Made by a program: the position numbers and the translations under genes. The notes under the pieces were generated by a model. That model was given only the letters and a program-made list of their open reading frames with translations, was not told the DNA's origin and made no database searches. Shown piece after piece: positions 7,843 to 23,640 of a stretch of 64,000 nt of DNA (its first letter is position 1; every line of letters begins with the position of its first letter). This DNA is from Solihabitans fulvus (GTDB taxonomy: Bacteria > Actinomycetota > Actinomycetes > Mycobacteriales > Pseudonocardiaceae): assembly GCF_008386585.1 (NCBI RefSeq), contig NZ_VUOB01000005.1, positions 40,232 through 104,231 of the forward strand, in the 5' to 3' direction.

Positions 7843-8517
7843 TCAGTCGGCGGCGGGGACGACCACGCCGGCGTCGTAGGCCGCGATCACCAGTTGCGCG
7901 CGGTCGCGGGCGTGCAGCTTGGCCAGCAGGTGGCTCACGTGACTCTTGACCGTGCCGGCGCCGAGGTGCAGGTGCGCGGCGATCTCGCCGTTGGACAGCC
8001 CGCGCGCGATCAGGCCGAGCACCTCCAGCTCCCGCTCGGTGACCCCGGCCAGCCGCGCGGCCCTCGGCCGCGCCGCCTCCGGCTGCCGCGTGTACTCCGC
8101 GACCAGGCGCCGCGTCACGGTCGGCGCGAACAGGCCCTCGCCCGCGGCCACCACGTGGATGGCGGCCAACAGGTTGGCCGGCCGGGTGTCCTTGAGCAGG
8201 AACCCGCTGGCTCCGGCGCGCAGCGCCGCGTACACGTAACGGTCCAGGTCGAACATGGTGAGGATCAGGACGCGGGTACCGCTCGTCTCGGGGTCCGCAC
8301 AGATCCGGGCCGTGGCCTCGATGCCGTCCAGCTCCGGCATCCGCACATCCATCAGCACGACGTCGGGGCGTTCCGCGCGCGTCAGCTCGACGGCCTCCGC
8401 GCCGGTCGCCGCCTCGCCGACCACGGTCAGGCCCGGCGCGGTGTCCACCAGGACCCGAAAGCTGCCGCGCAACAGCGCCTGGTCGTCGGCCACGAGCACC
8501 CGGACCGGCTCGGTCAC
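7843..8517 (-). CDS. NarL/LuxR-family response regulator
   Basis: GTG start overlaps the upstream kinase stop (GTGA). Receiver domain (VLVADDQ, VVLMDVRMP) and LuxR HTH (LTERELEVLGLIARGLSNGEIA). Confidence 0.85.
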   Translation of the reverse strand: MTEPVRVLVADDQALLRGSFRVLVDTAPGLTVVGEAATGAEAVELTRAERPDVVLMDVRMPELDGIEATARICADPETSGTRVLILTMFDLDRYVYAALRAGASGFLLKDTRPANLLAAIHVVAAGEGLFAPTVTRRLVAEYTRQPEAARPRAARLAGVTERELEVLGLIARGLSNGEIAAHLHLGAGTVKSHVSHLLAKLHARDRAQLVIAAYDAGVVVPAAD

Positions 8518-9722
8518 CGGTCGTCCCGTTCCTGGTAGGGCAGGCGGGCCGACACGGCGAAGCCGCCCTCCCGCCGCGTGCCGGCGCCGAACTCCCCGCC
8601 GTAGGCCATCGTCCGCTCCCACATGCCGACCAGCCCGTGCCCGGACCGGCCCTGCCCGGCACGCAGGCCGGGACCGTCGTCCGCGACCACCACGCGCACC
8701 TCCCGGCCGTCCGCCTCGACCGTCACGGCGGCCCGCGCGGGCGCGGCGTGCTTCACCACGTTCGTCAGCGCCTCCTGCACGATCCGGTACACCGACACCC
8801 CGACCCCCTCCGGCAGCTCGGTCGTCCCACGCACGTCCAGGTCGACCCGCACCCCGGCCATCGCGGCGCGCTCGGCCAGCGCCGGCAGGCCGGCGAGCCC
8901 CGGCACCGGGTCGAACTCGCCCTCCGGCGGGTCGGCGTCGGCCGGCTCGTCCGGCCGCAGCACGCCGAGGAGGTGGCGCAGCTCGGTGAGCGCGCCCCGG
9001 CTGGTGTCCTCGATGACGCGCAGCGCGTCGTGCGCCTCCTCGGGACGGGACCGCGCCACGTGGTTGGCGACGCCGGCCTTGACCGCGATCAACCCGATGC
9101 TGTGCGTCACCACGTCGTGCAGCTCCCGCGCGATGCGCAGGCGTTCCCCGAGCACGGCCCGGTCGGCGAGCTGGGCGGCGAACCTCGCGACGTAGGCGCG
9201 CCGGTCCCGCACGGCCCGGCCGATCGTCCAGGCTCCGCCGAGCAGGACCGCGCCGCGCAGCGCGAGCGCGAGGCCGTCCGCGTGCCAGGTCGGCGTGCCC
9301 GAGATCAGCGCCAGGGCAGCGAGCGCGCCGATCACCGGTGTCGGCACCCACCAGCGGCGCGGTTCGGCCAACGCGACCGGATACAGCGCGAAGGCCGCCA
9401 TGGCGAACGGATCCCGCAGCACGCCGACCGCCAACGACAGCAGCGACATCGCCGCGACCACCCCGAACACCGGCACCGGCCACATCCGCCGCGCGGCACA
9501 GGGGAGCCCGACCCCGGCCACCAGCAGGCACTGCGCCCACACCGGCATGGCCGCGCCGCGCGCGGCGACGGTGACCGCGACGAGCACCGCCGTGTAGCCC
9601 GCCGCGATCACCGCGTCGACGGCGACCAGCCGGTCCCGACTCATCGGCCGGGCCACCCGGCGGCCGGCGGCCGCGTCGCTGTCACGCACCCACCGACGGT
9701 ATCCGTTGCGATCATCGCGCAC
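8514..9722 (-). CDS. Sensor histidine kinase, HisKA_3 (NarX/DesK/LiaS-like)
   Basis: H-box ARELHDVVTHSIGLIAVKA, HATPase (DDGPGL, GHGLVGMWER), N-terminal TM helices. An alternative ATG at 9644 gives the start MSRDRLVAVDAVIAAGY. Confidence 0.8.
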   Translation of the reverse strand: MRDDRNGYRRWVRDSDAAAGRRVARPMSRDRLVAVDAVIAAGYTAVLVAVTVAARGAAMPVWAQCLLVAGVGLPCAARRMWPVPVFGVVAAMSLLSLAVGVLRDPFAMAAFALYPVALAEPRRWWVPTPVIGALAALALISGTPTWHADGLALALRGAVLLGGAWTIGRAVRDRRAYVARFAAQLADRAVLGERLRIARELHDVVTHSIGLIAVKAGVANHVARSRPEEAHDALRVIEDTSRGALTELRHLLGVLRPDEPADADPPEGEFDPVPGLAGLPALAERAAMAGVRVDLDVRGTTELPEGVGVSVYRIVQEALTNVVKHAAPARAAVTVEADGREVRVVVADDGPGLRAGQGRSGHGLVGMWERTMAYGGEFGAGTRREGGFAVSARLPYQERDDR

Positions 9723-9785
9723 CTCTGCCCGTGGGCTGTCGGCCTCAGGTCCTGGTTGCCCACGCGGAACTCCGCCGCGGCTCCG

Positions 9786-10559
9786 ATGCGCGCGAACCCG
9801 TTGCGCGGCAACGTTGTCAGGGTGATCGAAGTACTAGGACTCACCAAACGCTATGGGCGGGTCACCGCCGTCGACGACCTGACCTTCACGGTGCGGCCGG
9901 GGCAGGTGACCGGTTTCCTCGGCCCGAACGGCTCCGGCAAGTCCACCACCATGCGGGTGCTGCTCGGCCTCGCCACCCCGACCGGCGGCGACGCGCTGAT
10001 CAACGGCCGCGACTACCGCACCGTCCGGCGTCCCCTGCACGAGGTCGGCGCGCTGCTCGACGCGAACCACGTGCACGGTGGGCGGCGGGCCGCCACGCAC
10101 CTGGCCTGCCTCGCGCGCGGCAACGGCATCGGGCAGGCGCGGGTGACGGCCGTGCTCGACCAGGTGGGGCTCGCCGATGTCGCCCGCGACCGCGTCGCCG
10201 GTTTCTCCCTTGGCATGCGGCAGCGCCTCGGCATCGCGGCGGCGCTGCTCGGCGATCCCGGGGTGCTGGTGTTCGACGAGCCGGTCAACGGGCTGGATCC
10301 CGAGGGCGTGCGCTGGATCCGCGAGCTGATGCGGTCGCTGGCGGCCGAGGGACGCACGGTGTTGCTGTCCAGTCACCTGATGAGCGAGGTGGCGCTGACC
10401 GCCGACCGGCTCGTGGTCGTCGGCCGGGGCAGGCTGATCGCGGACACCACCGTCACCGAGCTGACCCGGCGCGGCTCCCTGGAGGAGGCGTACCTGTCGC
10501 TTACGGCCGAAAGCGTGGCGCACCGCGCCGTCGCGCCAGCCGAGCGGGGCCGGCGATGA
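9786..10559 (+). CDS. ABC transporter ATP-binding protein (ABC-2/BcrA-like)
   Basis: Walker A GPNGSGKST, signature FSLGMRQRLGIAAAL, Walker B LVFDEPVNGLD. The track merges it with an upstream spurious extension (8637..). Alternative GTG start at about 9822. Confidence 0.8.
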   Translation: MRANPLRGNVVRVIEVLGLTKRYGRVTAVDDLTFTVRPGQVTGFLGPNGSGKSTTMRVLLGLATPTGGDALINGRDYRTVRRPLHEVGALLDANHVHGGRRAATHLACLARGNGIGQARVTAVLDQVGLADVARDRVAGFSLGMRQRLGIAAALLGDPGVLVFDEPVNGLDPEGVRWIRELMRSLAAEGRTVLLSSHLMSEVALTADRLVVVGRGRLIADTTVTELTRRGSLEEAYLSLTAESVAHRAVAPAERGRR

Positions 10560-11386
10560 GCGCGCCGACGGCGGCGGAACGCCCCGGCATCGGGCGGTTG
10601 TCGGCCATGACCGCGATCCTGGCGGGGGAGTGGCTCAAGCTCCGGTCGCTGCGGGCGACCCGCGTGATCCTCGGCGTGGTCGCCGCGGCCGTGCTCGCCG
10701 TCGCGGCGCTGGCCTGGCACGTGGCGAACCTGTGGGACGGCCTGCCGCCCGACCAGCGCGGGCACCTGCGGGTGGCCGAGCTGGATCTGGTGGTGTCGCT
10801 GCCCGTCCAGCTCTGCATGGCCGTGCTCGGCGTCCTCGCGGTCACCTCCGAGTACGGCACCGGCATGATCCGCGCCAGCCTCGTGGCGGTGCCGCAGCGG
10901 CGCGCCCTGCTTGCCGCGAAGGCGGCGGTCGTCGCGGCCGTCGCGCTCGTCGTCGGCCTGGCGGCGCTGTTCGGGACCTTCTTCGCCGGCAAGCTGATCC
11001 TGGGCGACCGTCCCGTCGCCGGCTACGGGGCGCCGCTGTCGGACCGGCTGCCGATGCTGTTCGCCTCGGCGTTGTCGGTGTTGGTGTTCGCCGTGGTTGG
11101 CCTCGGTGTCGCGGCGGTGGCGCGGTCGGCGCTCGGCGTCAGCTCGGTCGTGGTCGCGCTGGTGTACGTGCTGCCGATGATCGCGATCAACCTGCCGAAA
11201 CCGTGGAGCGACAGGGTTTACTCCCTGCTGCTGCCGGCGCTGCCCGGCCAGCTGGCCGAGTCGGGCTACGCCGGCATCCCGTACACGGGGATCCTGCCGC
11301 CGCCGGGGGCGCTCGCCGTGCTGGTGGCCTATCTGGCCCTGCCGTTGGGCGCGGCCATCGTGCTGATCCATCGTCGCGACGTGTGA
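10556..11386 (+). CDS. ABC-2 family transporter permease
   Basis: ATG overlaps the ATPase stop (ATGA). Six predicted TM helices; protein MSAPTAAERPGIGRLSAMTAILAGEWLKLRSLRAT... Confidence 0.8.
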   Translation: MSAPTAAERPGIGRLSAMTAILAGEWLKLRSLRATRVILGVVAAAVLAVAALAWHVANLWDGLPPDQRGHLRVAELDLVVSLPVQLCMAVLGVLAVTSEYGTGMIRASLVAVPQRRALLAAKAAVVAAVALVVGLAALFGTFFAGKLILGDRPVAGYGAPLSDRLPMLFASALSVLVFAVVGLGVAAVARSALGVSSVVVALVYVLPMIAINLPKPWSDRVYSLLLPALPGQLAESGYAGIPYTGILPPPGALAVLVAYLALPLGAAIVLIHRRDV

Positions 11387-16279: not shown

Positions 16280-16345
16280 GGCTGCCCCCTTTCTCAGGCG
16301 AACTGCTCGCTGCCGACCACGCGCAGCAGCTCAAGGTAGTCGACG

Positions 16346-16657
16346 TTGGGCGTGCCGGGCTGCGGCGTGTCCGGCGCGGGTCAGGTGCTGGTCCGGGTCA
16401 AGGCCGCCGGCGTCAACCCGCTGGAGTCCGCGATCCGCGCAGGCGTCATGACCGAGGCGTACCCGGTGATCTTCCCCTCGGGGCAGGGCCGCGACCTCGC
16501 CGGGATTGTCGAGGTGCTGGCCGAACTCGCCGACCTGATCGACGCGGGACGCCTGGAGATCCCGATCGCGGCGACCTACCCGCTGGCCGAGGTGCAGGCC
16601 GCCTACAAGGAGCTCGAACAGCGCCACACCCGCGGCAAAATCGTCCTGCTGCCGTGA
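16346..16657 (+). pseudogene. Internally deleted remnant of an MDR-family NADPH:quinone oxidoreductase
   Basis: The 103-aa product joins an N-terminal fragment (GQVLVRVKAAGVNPLESAIRAG ... DLAGIVEV) directly to the C-terminal end (GRLEIPIAATYPLAEVQAAYKELEQRHTRGKIVLLP). About 230 aa of the normal roughly 320-aa enzyme is missing. Confidence 0.5.
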
Positions 16658-16670
16658 TCTCCACCGCCGG

Positions 16671-16706
16671 TCCTGTTGGGGCGGATGGTCAACCACCCCA
16701 ACAGGA
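16671..16706. terminator. Strong bidirectional hairpin TCCTGTTGGGG-N14-CCCCAACAGGA
   Basis: 11-bp perfect stem between the convergent QOR remnant (+) and the lanthipeptide precursor (-). Confidence 0.5.
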
Positions 16707-16717
16707 TTCGGCTCGGG

Positions 16718-16858
16718 TCAGCACTCCACGCGACCGCCGAGGCAGCCGACGTCGGTCGGCTGGAAGCTGTCGTGCCCGGTGTCGCAGCACATCGTCGGCT
16801 CCAGCACGCGCTCGTCGCGCTCGGGCAGTTCCTGAAGTTCGAGCACCTGGTCCTCCAT
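16718..16858 (-). CDS. Lanthipeptide precursor peptide (LanA), 46 aa: MEDQVLELQELPERDERVLEPTMCCDTGHDSFQPTDVGCLGGRVEC
   Basis: Not in the ORF track because it is under 60 aa. ATG 16858 with RBS GGGAGGTG 7 nt upstream; starts 14 nt after the stop of the synthetase on the same strand. GC3 is about 91%. Leader carries an LxLQ (VLELQEL) motif; C-terminal region has 4 Cys and 4 Ser/Thr. Confidence 0.65.
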   Translation of the reverse strand: MEDQVLELQELPERDERVLEPTMCCDTGHDSFQPTDVGCLGGRVEC

Positions 16859-16872
16859 AGCGTTTCACCTCC

Positions 16873-19509
16873 CTACGCAGCGAGTGGGAAACGGCGGTCG
16901 ACCAGCCACGCGCGGTCGCCGCCGTGCCGCAGGCGCAGCAGGAAGTCCAACACCCCGGCGAACCCCACCTGGTAGCTCGGGCAGACCTCCCGCAGCGTGT
17001 CGTCGGGCACCAGCAACCGGCCGCGCACCCGCACCGCGCGGGTGAACAGGCAGGTCGCCAGCTCGGCGGCCTGCCGCCGATAACCGTCCTCGCCGGTCGC
17101 CTGCGCCAGGTCGAGCAGCAACTCGGCGTTGCCGGCCACGCCGTGGCAGATCCCCGGGCCGAGCCGCCACCGGTCCAGGTACGCCGCGCGGGCGGCCCGC
17201 CGCGCGTGGTCGAGGAACGTCGCGTCGCCGGTCTCCCGCCACAGCCGCACCAGGAACGTGCCGACCCCCGACGCGCCGTTGCACCAGAAGTCCAGCCCGG
17301 GACGCTCGGCCCGCCCCGGACCCTTGGGCCACCACGCGGCGTCGCCGCGCGTCCGCGCCACCGCGCACAGCGCGTGCCCGCCGCCGACCGCGACCTCGAC
17401 GAGGTCCGGCCGGCCGAGATCACGGCCCGCGGCCAGCAGGAACGCGCCGACCCCCGCGACGCCGTGCGCGAACCCGTAGCTGCCCAGCCCGGCGAGGTCG
17501 TCGCGGAATCCGCCGTCCGCCAACCAGTCCACCCCGGACCGGGCAAGGCGCACCTGCCGCAGCACCGTGTCCGCCGCGGCCGCCGCGCGCGCCGCGAACC
17601 GCTCGTCGCCGGTCGCGTGCCAGAACCGCAGCTGCGTCAGGCCGGCGCCCGCAACCCCGTGGCAGACGTCGAGATTGGGCCACGCCACGGGAATCTCCAG
17701 CGCCGACGCCGCCGCCCAGTCGGCCGTCGCGGAGTCGCCGAGCGCCACCGCCGCGTCGTGCAGCGCCCACACGGCGCCCGACCGCCCGAAGTGCAGGCCC
17801 GGCAACACCCTGCGCTCCTGCGGCAGCCGCCACCGCATCCACCGCACGGCCGACCGCAGCGCGGGCCGCGCTGACTCCAGGCCGTGCCCGACCGCGCGCC
17901 GCAGCAGCGCCACGACGCCGGCCGCGCCGGTCTGCACATTGCACGGGTCGCCGTGCGGCAGCGAGCTCGGCTGGGGCCACAGGTACTCGCCGGACGGGTC
18001 CATGGTGTCGGCCAGGTGCGCCAACCCGTCCCGCACCAACAGGTCGACGTCGACGTCCGGCAGCTCAGGCCCAGCCGACACCGGCGCCACCCGTGGCCCG
18101 CCAGTCCGCAGGAAACGCCTGGTGTGCGCCAGGGTCCACCGGTCCGGCTCGTCGGCGGTCAGGCCGAGCACAAGCGGCAACAGCGCGGCCAGCGCCGCGC
18201 TGCCCGGCGCGGCGGCGTGCGCCAGCGCCGCGAGGCGCTCGCCGATCCACCGGCCCGGCACCGTGTCCGGCACCAGCACGGGGTGAATGCCGGTGGTGGC
18301 GTGCAGGAGGGTCGCGCCGAGGCTGAAGCAGTCGGCCGACGGCTCCGGCGCGTGATCCGCGCCGGAGCGCAGGTACTCCGGGGCCACGAACCCGGCCGTG
18401 CCGACCACGGCGGTCCGCGTGCCGGGGCGCGTGGCGGCCTCGAGGTCGATCAGCAGGGGAGTGCCGTCGGACCGCATGATCACGTTGCTCGGCTTGAGGT
18501 CTCGCAGCACCAGCCCCACCGCGTGCACCCGGTCCAGCACCGAGCTCAGCGCCCCGGCGAGTTGCCAGGCGCTCTCCGGCGACGGCTGCCCGTCATGTTC
18601 GCGGTGCCAGTCCTGGAGGTTCGTGCCGTCGACGAACTCCTCGACCAGGAACAGGTGGCCGCCAGCCGAGAACAGGTCGAGCCGTTGCGGCGTGATCACG
18701 TGCGGCGCCAACAGGTCCAGCATGTCGGCCTCGTGCCGCAGCCAGTCCCGCGCGTCGCGCCCGTCGAGGTCGGCGCCGACGTGCGGGCGGGCCTCCTTGA
18801 TCAGCACGTCGTGGCCGGTGCGTTCGTCCCTGGCGCGGTACACGCCGCCCCGGTTGCTGTGCCGGATCGCCTCGCTCACCACGTAGCGGTCGGCCAGCCG
18901 CACCGGGTCGCCGCGCCGCCGTGTCGGCGTGTCCGTGGCGGGGAACGGGTCGACGGCCCAGGGCGGGGGAGCGAACCAGGGGAGCCGGTCGTCGCGGACC
19001 GAGGCGCCGTCGGGGTCGCGCAGCCGCATCTCGTAGCTGCCCTCGTCGGTCAGCTCCAGCGGCGCGTGGAAGCAGCCGTAGCGGTAGTGCACGAGACTGC
19101 CCCGGTGGTAGCGGCGGTCGGACAGGATCGCCGGCCCCGGCAGCCCGAGAGTGGCCTCGTGCAGGTCCTTGGCGAGCGCGCGCAGCCGGTCGTCGTCGGC
19201 GGGGTAGGCGGTGAGGAACTTCCCCGACCGCGCGCGATCCATCCGCGCCGACACCAGCCTGGCGGTCACCGCCGGCGTGCTGGCGAACTTGAACGCGCAG
19301 TCGTGCCGCAGCAGCACCCTGGCCGCGCGCTCCAGCACGGACGGCGCGGATCCGGGTGTCGCGGACAGGTGCAGCTTCCAGCCCTGCCGGCGCGGCTCGT
19401 GGTCGGGCGGGGTCACCAGGTACCAGGGTTCGCGCAGGTCGACCCGCCAGCCCGCGGCGGCATCCGGCTCGTCCAGGACGCGCTCGACGATGGGCAGGTA
19501 GTTCGGCAT
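16873..19509 (-). CDS. Trifunctional lanthipeptide synthetase (N-terminal lyase, Ser/Thr kinase, C-terminal LanC-like cyclase); LanL (class IV)-like
   Basis: Kinase motifs (GGVYRARD, VLIKEAR, VLRDLKPSNV, IDLEAA, GTAGFVAPE). LanC-like motifs with the Zn ligands conserved (VCHGVAGAG, FWCNGASGVG, ICHGVAGNAELLL). N-terminal lyase-like region (GWKLHLS, GKFLTAYP). Confidence 0.85.
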   Translation of the reverse strand: MPNYLPIVERVLDEPDAAAGWRVDLREPWYLVTPPDHEPRRQGWKLHLSATPGSAPSVLERAARVLLRHDCAFKFASTPAVTARLVSARMDRARSGKFLTAYPADDDRLRALAKDLHEATLGLPGPAILSDRRYHRGSLVHYRYGCFHAPLELTDEGSYEMRLRDPDGASVRDDRLPWFAPPPWAVDPFPATDTPTRRRGDPVRLADRYVVSEAIRHSNRGGVYRARDERTGHDVLIKEARPHVGADLDGRDARDWLRHEADMLDLLAPHVITPQRLDLFSAGGHLFLVEEFVDGTNLQDWHREHDGQPSPESAWQLAGALSSVLDRVHAVGLVLRDLKPSNVIMRSDGTPLLIDLEAATRPGTRTAVVGTAGFVAPEYLRSGADHAPEPSADCFSLGATLLHATTGIHPVLVPDTVPGRWIGERLAALAHAAAPGSAALAALLPLVLGLTADEPDRWTLAHTRRFLRTGGPRVAPVSAGPELPDVDVDLLVRDGLAHLADTMDPSGEYLWPQPSSLPHGDPCNVQTGAAGVVALLRRAVGHGLESARPALRSAVRWMRWRLPQERRVLPGLHFGRSGAVWALHDAAVALGDSATADWAAASALEIPVAWPNLDVCHGVAGAGLTQLRFWHATGDERFAARAAAAADTVLRQVRLARSGVDWLADGGFRDDLAGLGSYGFAHGVAGVGAFLLAAGRDLGRPDLVEVAVGGGHALCAVARTRGDAAWWPKGPGRAERPGLDFWCNGASGVGTFLVRLWRETGDATFLDHARRAARAAYLDRWRLGPGICHGVAGNAELLLDLAQATGEDGYRRQAAELATCLFTRAVRVRGRLLVPDDTLREVCPSYQVGFAGVLDFLLRLRHGGDRAWLVDRRFPLAA

Positions 19510-19648: not shown

Positions 19649-20719
19649 ATGGGGGTCGTGTGGTTGGTGGTGCCAGGTGCCGTGCTCGGCGCCGCGGCCG
19701 TGGGGCTCGGGTCGGTCGGCGTCGTGCGGCACCGGTGGCTGCTGCTGCCGGCGAGCCTGGCCGGCTCCAGCGCGGCGCTGCTGCTGGTGACCAGCTGGCT
19801 GCTGGCCGATCCCGGTGTCGCCAAGGCCGACGCGCTCAAGACCGGCGGCCTTGCCGGCGGCGCGATCCTCGCGCTGTACGCGCTGTGGATCAACGACCGG
19901 CGCAGGAAGACCGAGGAGGCCCGCCAGGAGATCGAGCAGCAGCGGGCGCAACTCGACCGGGACCGGGTCTCCGACGAACGGTTCGCCAAGGCGATCGAGC
20001 TGCTCGGCCACGCCGCCGACCAGGTGCGGGTCGGCGCGTTGCACGCGCTCGCCGGGCTCGCCCGCAGCCGGCCGACCTACACCCAGACCGTGCTCGACGT
20101 GCTGTGCTCCTACCTGCGCAGGCCCTTCCACCACCCCAGCTACAAGACCAGGGCCGACAATCCCCACCGGGCCGCACGCGCGTCGGGCACCCCGCAGGAA
20201 GCGGAGGCGCTCGCCGCGGCCGACCTTGAGCAGGAGGTCCGGCAGACCGCGCAGCGGCTGATCGCCGGGCTGCTGCCCAGCCGCGACGACACCTCGCCGA
20301 CGCTCTACGACCTGGACCTGTCGGCGGCGACCCTGGAGTACCTCGACCTCACCGGACGGCAGCTGGGCGCGCTCACCGCCCGACGGGCGCGGCTGTACGG
20401 CATCACCCGCCTGTCCGGCGTCCGGGTGACGGGGCCGGCGCTGTTCACCGATGCCACCTTCCACGGCCGCACCGAGCTGCGCAACGCCGTCCTCGACGGC
20501 GGCCTGTCGTTGCTCGGCGCGGAGTTCGGCGGGGAGTGGGAGCTTCGCGGCGCGCTGGTGCGGACGTTCGCCGACCTCCGCACCGCCCCGCCCAGCCAGC
20601 AGCTCGGCGCGTTCCTCGTGGAGACCGACACCGACAGGCTCCGGCTCGGCGACCACCAGGGCTGGGCGACCGTGCGGCAGCCCGACCCCGACGAGGACGA
20701 GCCGGAGACACCGAGCTAA
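19649..20719 (+). CDS. Membrane-anchored pentapeptide-repeat protein
   Basis: Two N-terminal TM helices, a charged coiled region (RRKTEEARQEIEQQRAQLDRDR), and C-terminal tandem pentapeptide repeats (LDLSAATLEYLDLTGRQLGALTARRARLYGITRLSGVRVTG...). Confidence 0.7.
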   Translation: MGVVWLVVPGAVLGAAAVGLGSVGVVRHRWLLLPASLAGSSAALLLVTSWLLADPGVAKADALKTGGLAGGAILALYALWINDRRRKTEEARQEIEQQRAQLDRDRVSDERFAKAIELLGHAADQVRVGALHALAGLARSRPTYTQTVLDVLCSYLRRPFHHPSYKTRADNPHRAARASGTPQEAEALAAADLEQEVRQTAQRLIAGLLPSRDDTSPTLYDLDLSAATLEYLDLTGRQLGALTARRARLYGITRLSGVRVTGPALFTDATFHGRTELRNAVLDGGLSLLGAEFGGEWELRGALVRTFADLRTAPPSQQLGAFLVETDTDRLRLGDHQGWATVRQPDPDEDEPETPS

Positions 20720-20737: not shown

Positions 20738-21670
20738 TCAGCGCAGCGCGGACTCCAGGACGGTCAGCGTGCCCGCGTCCGCGTCCAGCTCCGCCGGCAC
20801 CCCCAACGGCACGGTCAGCTGCCCAGCGCAGTGCCCGAATCCCAGGTCCCACACCATCGGCACATCCAACCCGGCCAACAGGTCCAGCAACACCGCGACC
20901 ACCTCCTCGGGCCGTCCGCACGAGGTGAACGACCCGAACGCGATGCCGGCCACCCCGTCGAACCACCCCGCGCGCAGCAGCTGCGTCACGATCCGGTCCA
21001 GCCGGTAGGGATCCTCGGTCACGTCCTCCAACAACACGATCGCGCCGTCCGGCGGCGCCGGCGCGTCCGGCGCACCCAGCGCGGACACCACCAGACTCGC
21101 GTTGCCGCCGACCGTGACACCGCGCGCGAGCCCGGGAACCAGCGTCCTCGCCCCGGCCGCGCCGAGCACCCGCACCGACTCCGGCTCGAACAGCGCGCGC
21201 CGAAAGTGCTGCTGCGCAGGCACATCGTCCACGAACCCCGGCGTGGCGACCATCGGCGCGAACACCGTCGCCACGCCGACCTGCGCGCCGAACCAGTCGT
21301 GCAACGCCGTCACATCGCTCGACCCGGCGAACACCGTGGGCCGCGCCCGCGCCAACGCCGGCCAGTCCACCAGATCAAGGATCCGCAGGCAGCCGTAGCC
21401 ACCCCGCGCGCACAGCACCGCGGCCACCTCGGGATCGCAGTACGCCCGCACCAGATCCCCGGCCCGGTCCGCATCGGCGCCCGCCAAGTACGGCAGCGTC
21501 GGATGCGCGTCGAGCACGTGCGGGGCGACCTCCACCAGCAGCCCCCACGACCGCAGCACCGCCACCCCGGCGGCCAACTGCGCCTCCGGCACCGGCCCGG
21601 CAGGCGCGACCACCACCACGCGGTCGCCCCGCCGCAACCTGGCGGGGCGACGCCGCGACGGCGAACTCAC
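20738..21670 (-). CDS. LD-carboxypeptidase (peptidase S66, LdcA/MccF family)
   Basis: S66 signatures (DRVVVVAPAG, CARGGYGCLRIL, AGSSDVTALH). GTG start overlaps the upstream S9 peptidase stop (GTGA). Confidence 0.8.
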   Translation of the reverse strand: MSSPSRRRPARLRRGDRVVVVAPAGPVPEAQLAAGVAVLRSWGLLVEVAPHVLDAHPTLPYLAGADADRAGDLVRAYCDPEVAAVLCARGGYGCLRILDLVDWPALARARPTVFAGSSDVTALHDWFGAQVGVATVFAPMVATPGFVDDVPAQQHFRRALFEPESVRVLGAAGARTLVPGLARGVTVGGNASLVVSALGAPDAPAPPDGAIVLLEDVTEDPYRLDRIVTQLLRAGWFDGVAGIAFGSFTSCGRPEEVVAVLLDLLAGLDVPMVWDLGFGHCAGQLTVPLGVPAELDADAGTLTVLESALR

Positions 21671-23640
21671 TCGCGCAGCTCCAGCACGGGAACCCCCGGC
21701 GCCTCGAAGCCCAACACCTGACCGTAGAAGGACAACTCGGCTTCCAGCGCGGCCTTGATCGTCTCCGCCCTGCGGAACCCGTGCTGCTCACCCTCGAACG
21801 TCAGGTACGCGTGCTTGACCCCAGAACCGTCCAGGGCCGCCACGAACCGGTCGGCCTGGTCGGGCGGGCAGATCTCGTCCTCGAGGCCCTGCAACAACAA
21901 CACCGGCCCGACCAACTTGTCGACCTTGCTGCTCGGCGACCGCTCCTTGTACCGGTCGGCCGCCGCAGGCCACGGCCCGACGAGGCCCTCCACGTACCGC
22001 GACTCGAAGTCGTGCGTCTCGCCGCCGTCACCGGTCCAGCCGGCCAGGTCCAGGATTGGGTACATCACGTTGCCGCACCGGTAGGTCGACACCGACGTCA
22101 TCGACGCCGCGGCGGTCCAACCGCCCGCGCTGCCGCCCCGGATCGCCAGCCGCTGGCCGTCCGCGACGCCCTCGGCCGCGAGCGCCTCGGCCACCGCGGC
22201 GCAGTCCCGGACGTCGACGACGCCCCACTGCTCGCGAAGCCGCTCCCGGAACTCCCTGCCGTAGCCGGTGGAGCCGCCGTAGTTCACCGACACCACACCG
22301 ATGCCCCTGCTGGTGAAGAACGCCAGCTCCACATCGAGCACCGGCACCGACCGACCGGTCGGGCCGCCGTGCACGTGCACCACGTACGGCGGCAGTTCGC
22401 CATCGGGCCCAGCGAAGTCGGGACTGGTCGGGGGGTAGACATAGGCGGGCACCGTCTGCCCGTCGGGGCCGGTGAACACCCGCTCCGTGGGCACCGGCAG
22501 GTAGCTGGCGTCGGGCAGCTCGTCCGGCTGCCCCGTGACGGCCGTCAGCTCGCCGTTGGACAGGTCCAGCCGCACCACTGCGGCCTCCGAGGTCGCCCCG
22601 GCCGCGCCGTTGACGACCACGCCGTCGGCCGCGACCAGATTGCCGAACCACACCGGCAGGTCGGTGTCCACGTCGGTCACCGTGCCGCTGCGCTCGTCCA
22701 GCACGGCCAGCCTCGTGTCGGCGACCACTGCGAACCGGCCGTCGCCAAGCGCGGCGAACCACCGGTTACCCAGCCGCCACATCGGGCCGCCGATCTCCCG
22801 CTCGCACGGCGCGAGGTTGCGCACCGAACCGTCCAGGCCGACGCGGTGCAGGTTCCACCAGCCGTCCGGGTCGGTCAACGCCAACAGGGTCTCGGCGGTC
22901 TCCCACTCGAACTGGCAGACCGCCTCGGTCGGACCGCCAGCCAGCACCCGGTGCTCGCCGAGCGACCCGTCCTCGGCCACGGCCGCGACACACAGCTCGG
23001 TGCCGTCCCACGGCATCGCCGGGTGGTCCCAGCCCAGCCAGGCGACGTGCCGGCCGTCGGGGCTGGCCTTCGGTCCGGTCATGAAGTGGTGGCTCGCGCC
23101 GAGCACCCGCACCTCGGCCTCGTCGGTGGCCGCCGCACCCGACACCGGCAGCGCGACCAGGTCGCGGCGGATGTCCGTGCGGGCCTCGCCCGTCGCGGCC
23201 TCGCGCACGCACCACACCTCGGTGCCGTCCGGGCTCGCGGTCAGGTCCGCGTAGCGGAATCCCTGCCGGCGCAGCGGGTCCGGACTGATCGGCTGCGGTG
23301 TCGCCGCCGCGTCGTCCGCGTCGACCAGGTACACGCGCTGGTCGTCCCAGTTGGTGAACGCCAACCGGTCACCGTCGGGAGTGCCGATCACCACCCACGG
23401 CCGGCCGCCGTACTCGTGCACGCGGTTGCGGACGTTCCACGGCGCGGACAGCACCTGCTCGGGCTGCCCGTCGGGCCCCTCCCGCAGCAGGGCGGTGCGG
23501 CCGCCCTCGGCGGGACGGCTCTCCGCCCACCACACCCGTCCGTCGTGCAGGTCGACCCACTGGAGGCCGCCGCCGGCGGCAGCCGCCTCGGCCGAGCCGA
23601 TGGGGGAGGTCCAGGTTCCATAAGGCGCGATCTTCACCAC
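21667..23640 (-). CDS. S9-family serine peptidase (prolyl oligopeptidase / acylaminoacyl-peptidase type)
   Basis: 657-aa product: N-terminal beta-propeller-like region plus C-terminal alpha/beta-hydrolase with nucleophile motif IRGGSAGGW and a downstream Asp/His pair. Confidence 0.85.
   Translation of the reverse strand: MVKIAPYGTWTSPIGSAEAAAAGGGLQWVDLHDGRVWWAESRPAEGGRTALLREGPDGQPEQVLSAPWNVRNRVHEYGGRPWVVIGTPDGDRLAFTNWDDQRVYLVDADDAAATPQPISPDPLRRQGFRYADLTASPDGTEVWCVREAATGEARTDIRRDLVALPVSGAAATDEAEVRVLGASHHFMTGPKASPDGRHVAWLGWDHPAMPWDGTELCVAAVAEDGSLGEHRVLAGGPTEAVCQFEWETAETLLALTDPDGWWNLHRVGLDGSVRNLAPCEREIGGPMWRLGNRWFAALGDGRFAVVADTRLAVLDERSGTVTDVDTDLPVWFGNLVAADGVVVNGAAGATSEAAVVRLDLSNGELTAVTGQPDELPDASYLPVPTERVFTGPDGQTVPAYVYPPTSPDFAGPDGELPPYVVHVHGGPTGRSVPVLDVELAFFTSRGIGVVSVNYGGSTGYGREFRERLREQWGVVDVRDCAAVAEALAAEGVADGQRLAIRGGSAGGWTAAASMTSVSTYRCGNVMYPILDLAGWTGDGGETHDFESRYVEGLVGPWPAAADRYKERSPSSKVDKLVGPVLLLQGLEDEICPPDQADRFVAALDGSGVKHAYLTFEGEQHGFRRAETIKAALEAELSFYGQVLGFEAPGVPVLELRE

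Follow-up and report, generated by a model that had tools for sequence, protein, structure and literature searches.

The lanL-lanA locus of Solihabitans fulvus occupies the minus strand of the window (the whole 64-kb stretch of DNA that was analyzed, 73.8% G+C) and consists of a gene for a lanthionine synthetase and, directly behind it, a very short gene (Table 1). Translation of the short gene, lanA, from the ATG at position 16858 to the TGA at 16720-16718 (window 16858..16718, minus strand) gives MEDQVLELQELPERDERVLEPTMCCDTGHDSFQPTDVGCLGGRVEC, exactly the 46 residues reported by the initial annotation, whose coordinates for the gene therefore include the stop codon. No other start is possible, given an in-frame TGA three codons 5' of this ATG. 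Seven nucleotides separate the ATG from the Shine-Dalgarno sequence GGGAGGTG, as had been described, and the first G of this sequence is at the same time the final base of the lanL stop codon (TAG, 16875-16873), such that only 14 nucleotides (nt) lie between the end of one gene and the start of the next.

Table 1. Features of the lanL-lanA locus in window coordinates
Feature	Position	Strand	Basis
lanL, 878-aa class IV lanthionine synthetase (lyase, kinase, and Zn-cyclase)	16873..19509	-	Pfam, NCBIfam, motifs
Shine-Dalgarno GGGAGGTG of lanA	16866..16873	-	Direct sequence reading
lanA, gene of the probable 46-aa precursor peptide	16718..16858 (stop codon included)	-	Translation, composition, homologues, family profile matches
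Putative leader, aa 1-21	16796..16858	-	Acidic; VLELQELP recognition motif; ends at invariant L19-x-P21
Putative core, aa 22-46, TMCCDTGHDSFQPTDVGCLGGRVEC	16721..16795	-	22-member alignment; boundary conjectural
GC-rich hairpin, 14 bp, 11 nt past the lanA stop	16671..16706	-	Folding

The composition of lanA is that of a coding sequence. G or C occupies the third position in 42 of its 46 sense codons, a recount that agrees with the annotated value of about 91%, and G+C fractions at the first and second positions are 0.74 and 0.40. Among the 60 open reading frames (ORFs) of 40 to 60 aa in the window, it alone combines a third-position G+C of at least 0.89 with a second-position G+C of at most 0.45. 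The gene had been called hidden, but an identical 46-aa protein is already present in NCBI as "hypothetical protein [Solihabitans fulvus]." The leader half is acidic, as noted previously, with 8 Asp or Glu residues against 2 Arg, and its LxLQ motif, within VLELQELP, matches the recognition motifs of class III/IV precursors. The residues open to modification (T22, T27, S31, T35, C24, C25, C39, and C46) all stand where they had been placed: the core presents C24-C25-D26 (invariant among relatives) and T27 (nearly so), followed by S31, T35, C39, and C46. Neither ORF composition nor homology searching revealed a second precursor ORF in the 64-kb window.

The neighboring enzyme is a bona fide LanL with an intact catalytic apparatus. 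It has the class IV architecture of an N-terminal pSer/pThr lyase, a central Ser/Thr kinase, and a C-terminal LanC-like cyclase (RamC_N, Pkinase, and LANC_like in Pfam), and it matches the NCBIfam equivalog for LanL (NF038150; cutoff, 650 bits) with 991 bits over profile positions 1 to 851 of 851, as opposed to 471 bits for the class III LanKC model, which is below the cutoff of 575. The GWKLH motif of the lyase and the RDLKPSN and DLE motifs of the kinase are kept across ten related enzymes, and in the same comparison the cyclase residues D614, H682, C743, and C788-H789 fall within motifs conserved across the clade. These residues, which supply the zinc ligands (Cys-Cys-His) and the acid pair (Asp/His) of class IV, match the Asp/His/Cys/Cys-His set whose catalytic role in SgbL was established by mutagenesis (PMC9292228), and in alignments the WCxG and CHG motifs coincide with their counterparts in LanCL1/2 and GCR2. 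What divides LanL from LanKC is the zinc ligands (PMC9828337). Listed in NCBI as [quoted passage not shown] the enzyme belongs to a clade of roughly 55 to 60 clusters with 56 to 63% identity to it, other LanLs reaching 50% at most. The short adjoining gene, with its leader motif and a core containing Cys and Ser/Thr, supplies the remaining element of a class IV system.

The hairpin past the lanA stop has a predicted folding energy of -39.1 kcal/mol (z = -5.4). A scan for consensus terminators and promoters found nothing, the hairpin being missed because it has no T-run, and it may represent a terminator or attenuator that lacks a T-tract. A comparable GC-rich hairpin lies between the peptide gene and a downstream lanC in all eight loci checked (L006 to L010, L012, L013, and L015, all of which contain lanC), where it may act as an attenuator that sets the ratio of lanA to lanC expression. 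Just past the hairpin in the window, a 105-aa ORF with coding composition (16340-16657, plus strand) converges on lanA. Its matches are confined to the first ~51 positions of ADH_N and the last ~76 of ADH_zinc_N_2, and it is what an internal deletion has left of a zinc-type dehydrogenase or quinone oxidoreductase, consistent with rearrangement at this site.

The association of the peptide gene with LanL is strict, and the conservation 3' of lanL homologues that the initial annotation had proposed to examine is borne out. A scan of reference genomes with LanL recovered five loci, with enzymes about 60% identical, each with a homologous small ORF beginning 34 to 60 nt past the LanL stop. In total, 14 of 14 related loci, from Embleya, Streptomyces, Kitasatospora, Nonomuraea, Kibdelosporangium, Kutzneria, and Nocardia, have a homologous ORF of 42 to 56 aa directly 3' of the LanL homologue, each preceded at the equivalent position by a purine-rich Shine-Dalgarno sequence, and this holds in the Nocardia brasiliensis and Kutzneria loci, which were picked through the enzyme alone. 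Genes flanking the pair vary among the 14 loci. Across L001 to L015, which span three actinomycete orders, none of the peptide ORFs is disrupted.

The peptides constitute a family that is recovered only by profile. A protein search with the single window sequence returned only the sequence itself, and the family emerged once a profile was derived from the peptides of the loci. This profile matched 23 protein clusters, all of 33 to 51 aa and all named "hypothetical protein," from Streptomyces, Kitasatospora, Embleya, Nonomuraea, Kibdelosporangium, and Solihabitans. When 1.84 billion representatives were searched exhaustively with the profile, 16 matches were returned, all short proteins, which added 11 family members and provided no bridge to VenA, SflA, class III, or unrelated families. 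In an alignment of 22 members (consensus ME..VLELQELPETDEQ.LEPMMCCDTGH.S...TD.C), L6, L8, Q9, L11, P12, L19, P21, C24, C25, and D26 are invariant, and V5, E7, E10, E13, T14, E20, M23, and T27 are nearly so. Defined by its invariant residues and its place directly 3' of a LanL from the clade of 56 to 63% identity, the family includes the lanA of the window. Over the 25 best-aligned codons, the window gene differs from those of eight loci by pS values of 0.24 to 0.68 and pN values of 0.12 to 0.26, and pS exceeds pN in 36 of 36 pairwise comparisons of these conserved codons, indicative of purifying selection.

The modifiable residues conserved in the family are C24, C25, T27, S/T31, mostly T/S35, and a distal Cys. 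The initial annotation had allowed for up to four rings in the window peptide; the four Cys and four Ser/Thr on which this count was based are present, but T22 is not conserved, which reduces the family set to three Cys and three Ser/Thr and makes four rings an upper bound. Some members depart from the common form. P0024 (100 aa), P0031, and P0034 have long Arg/Pro-rich tails beyond the CCDT block and are probably frameshifted or decaying copies, and Embleya sp. AB8 has two paralogous lanL-lanA pairs, P0002 (on a 340-kb contig) and P0004 (L004, 6728-6856), of which the L004 copy is without LanC and has a divergent core, CCDTCGRSSWVVDVEDVD.

Curated precursor models, another check that had been proposed for lanA, stay below threshold for the family. 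Pfam and NCBIfam scans of the window peptide and its 22 relatives yielded nothing above cutoff and only weak leader-type matches: sub-threshold matches to class III lanthipeptide leader HMMs occur in 14 of the 22 family members, and the window peptide scores 10.1 bits with the class III precursor models (NF038154/159/160), below their cutoff of 27. The VenA-family model (NF038147) does not match the window peptide, and its best E value, 0.15, comes from the 2 of 22 relatives in which it registers at all.

The leader motif VLELQELPE unites the ILELQ-type motif, which is essential for the recognition of LabA2 by LabKC (PMC8341899), with the (M/L)xx(L/V)xxL pattern to which the leader-recognition subdomain of LanKC and LanL kinase domains binds (PMC9828337). 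It also fits the LQxLPE(T) motif of published class IV precursors, which lanA has in common with SgbA, LanIV-5 (as DLAALQNLPETES), LanIV-3, and S. venezuelae CUM36598.1; the stretch of this type in the S. venezuelae precursor reads DIDALQVLPEE.

A full-text literature search for MCCDT, LELQELP, and CCDTGH found no relevant paper, and the family motif is absent from the available portion of the Walker et al. 2020 supplement. Two family members are, however, listed as precursors in the Supplementary Data of Ayikpoe et al. 2022 (PMC9576775), as FAST-RiPPs entries 56 (Kibdelosporangium aridum SMD17762.1, identical to the L006 peptide, P0020) and 57 (Kutzneria albida AHH99304.1). Both bear the label "Class III lanthipeptide, LanIII" and no group number, each with four genes (precursor, "LanKC," "LanKC," and FAD-binding protein), and neither is in the set reported as giving a modified peptide (PMC9576775). 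Their synthetases (L006, 5397-7979; L015, 4001-6625) score ~985 bits with the LanL model against about 450 to 470 with the LanKC model and carry the zinc ligands, and so are LanLs and not LanKCs. The family is thus without a characterized product in the literature and is already in a genome-mining data set, where it was arguably noticed in silico under the wrong class. The two entries share with lanA the peptide family (VLELQ.LPET...P.MCCDT) and a synthetase from the same LanL clade (57 to 59% identity to that of the window). They differ in having four genes (precursor, synthetase, standalone LanC-like protein, and FAD monooxygenase), compared to lanL and lanA only in the window, and in their cores of the CCDTDWTSG.CTD..PRC type. 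In these two Pseudonocardiaceae loci, the gene directly after LanC encodes an FAD-dependent aromatic-type monooxygenase (PRK06184-like; L006, 9176-10615; L015, 7857-9278), which may tailor the Trp-containing cores (CCDTDWTSG).

These features make it very probable that, as initially proposed, lanA encodes a class IV lanthipeptide precursor, which would share a transcript with the upstream lanL and use its own ribosome-binding site for translation. If VenL (PMC2843593) and SgbL are a guide, maturation would begin with docking of the amphipathic leader motif V5-L6-x-L8-Q9-x-L11-P12 onto the subdomain of the LanL kinase domain that recognizes leaders. The kinase would then phosphorylate T27, S31, and T35 in the C-terminal half, and possibly the unconserved T22, and the N-terminal lyase would eliminate phosphate to leave Dhb and Dha. 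Addition of the thiols of C24, C25, C39, and C46 by the zinc-dependent cyclase could give up to four (methyl)lanthionine rings. Proteases encoded outside the locus would remove the leader, the usual arrangement in classes III and IV, and the cut may fall near the invariant Pro21; a boundary between leader and core directly after this residue is a guess based on its conservation.

The invariant C24-C25 pair of the family sits N-terminal to the conserved Thr/Ser. Rings in which Cys is N-terminal to Thr or Ser have the less common direction among lanthipeptides, which counts against the assignment, as do the sub-threshold precursor models and the absence of a standalone LanC and of an adjacent exporter. 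That thioether chemistry takes place is suggested by the strict linkage to LanL, the leader motif, and a distal Cys that co-varies with a second cyclase.

The closest known counterparts are likewise class IV. In the prototype, venezuelin of Streptomyces venezuelae (PMC2843593), the cluster consists of venL, venA, venT, and venH; VenL, like the enzyme of the window, is a three-domain LanL with a zinc cyclase, the VenA core similarly has four Cys and four Ser/Thr, and neither cluster includes a protease or a regulator. The position of lanA 3' of lanL was considered as an unusual order and rejected, given that the ven cluster runs in the same order. Unlike VenA, to which its core is unrelated, lanA has the invariant N-terminal Cys-Cys, and its LanL belongs to a separate clade. 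The venTH ABC exporter of the ven cluster has no equivalent adjoining lanL-lanA, and any export or bioactivity of the product is presumptive. SgbL, the synthetase of globisporin, shares all its D/H/C/C-H catalytic residues with the LanL of the window, but SgbA and the other published class IV precursors differ from lanA in core sequence and in Cys/Thr order, and most relatives of the window family add a second cyclase to what is found in SgbL/SgbA-type systems. The resemblance to LabA2, the class III precursor of labyrinthopeptin, lies in the ILELQ-type hydrophobic leader motif, which is also read by a kinase-domain leader-recognition subdomain; the enzyme of the window differs in its zinc ligands and its sub-cutoff LanKC score, and the core lacks SxxSxxxC.

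The second cyclase is a standalone LanC-like protein encoded after the peptide gene and hairpin in 11 of the 15 loci made up by the window and its 14 relatives (L002, L003, L005 to L010, L012, L013, and L015). These loci contain a lanL-lanA-lanC cassette with two cyclases (e.g., LanC at 8286-9485 in L007 and at 6215-7432 in L013), and the standalone proteins, of 321 to 405 aa, have AHG, WCxG, and CHG motifs of their own. A LanC directly after the peptide gene is therefore typical of the family but not universal: it is missing from L004, L011, L014, and the window, throughout which tblastn with three LanCs matched only the cyclase domain of LanL. Peptides from L004, L011, and L014 lack the distal Cys, whereas the window peptide retains C39 and has the extra C46. 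In a neighbor-joining tree of the enzymes, L003 and L009 are the sisters of L004 and L011, respectively (100% bootstrap support for each), a topology that shows at least two independent losses of LanC. Because the LanL of the window branches deepest in the clade, LanC may here have been either ancestrally absent or lost.

The distribution of LanC bears on how the pair in the window should be read. It is conceivable, if unlikely, that lanA is a genuine family member in a reduced or decaying locus, its LanC lost or located elsewhere and the peptide only partly cyclized or the pair silent. The lack of LanC from the 64 kb, the missing distal Cys in three of the four loci without LanC, the repeated losses of LanC, and the dehydrogenase remnant past the hairpin, a hint of local rearrangement, all point in this direction, and without the standalone LanC of most relatives, maturation in S. 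fulvus may be incomplete. Yet LanL and the peptide are both intact (all catalytic residues, Shine-Dalgarno sequence, and coding composition), LanL has a complete zinc-cyclase domain of its own, the peptide has kept C39 and has the extra C46, and with LanL as the deepest branch, the absence could be ancestral and not a sign of decay. A rather doubtful extension of the class IV assignment is that the family forms a distinct two-cyclase branch, in which LanL would crosslink the Met-Cys-Cys-Asp-Thr segment in the unusual Cys-first direction or into a noncanonical structure involving both adjacent cysteines, and LanC would build the distal ring or rings; if so, the deepest-branching Solihabitans pair, which lacks LanC, would be a natural minimal system showing LanL acting alone.

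The remaining alternatives are far less probable. Were lanA to encode a small protein rich in Cys that binds metal, regulates the kinase, or has some other function, and not a modified natural product, this would fit with an MCCD(T) block conserved more strictly than is usual for lanthipeptide cores and with the lack of any known product; such a role is very unlikely given how strictly the gene is tied to LanL, its leader of lanthipeptide type, and a C-terminal Cys that co-varies with the second cyclase. It is also highly improbable that lanA is a class III precursor of the labionin type, modified by a LanKC, despite the class III label given to the Kibdelosporangium and Kutzneria homologues (PMC9576775), the similarity of VLELQ to ILELQ, and the weak HMM matches to class III leaders. 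The enzymes score 984 to 991 bits as LanLs and 449 to 471 as LanKCs (cutoff, 575), they have the Cys-Cys-His zinc ligands that are absent from LanKCs, no SxxSxxxC labionin motif can be read in the core, and LQxLPE occurs in class IV leaders as well. A gene this short might be suspected of being a random ORF in GC-rich intergenic DNA, spurious ORFs being abundant in high-GC genomes, but conservation of the amino acids across orders with synonymous sites saturated, the excess of pS over pN, a Shine-Dalgarno sequence in every locus, and a coding composition unique in the window effectively exclude this origin.

As a class IV system, the lanL-lanA pair is of a known kind and not a new one. Chemically characterized class IV lanthipeptides number about four (PMC9576775), and lanA belongs to a conserved family of probable class IV precursors distinguished by an unusually rigid Cys-Cys-Asp-Thr start to the core and, in most loci, by a second cyclase. 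The window contains a compact two-gene version, lanL and lanA in about 2.8 kb, which lends itself readily to heterologous or in vitro reconstitution and offers a natural control for the role of the accessory LanC; to a lanthipeptide specialist, it would be a reasonable target and no surprise.

Several other genes lie within reach of the pair. An LD-carboxypeptidase (S66) and an S9-family serine peptidase are encoded at 20738-23640 on the minus strand, the strand of lanL, past a divergent gene. The S9 peptidase, two genes upstream, was considered as a dedicated leader peptidase and rejected; neither gene is conserved in any related locus, and they are therefore probably unrelated to leader removal. 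At 8514-11386, 5 to 8 kb from lanA and separated from it by unrelated genes, a HisKA_3 sensor kinase (minus strand) lies beside an ORF with ABC-2 permease domains (plus strand), a pair that does not recur as conserved neighbors elsewhere. The gene divergent from lanL (19649-20719, plus strand), across an intergenic region of 139 bp, encodes a protein of 356 aa that contains pentapeptide repeats and, toward its N terminus, hydrophobic segments.
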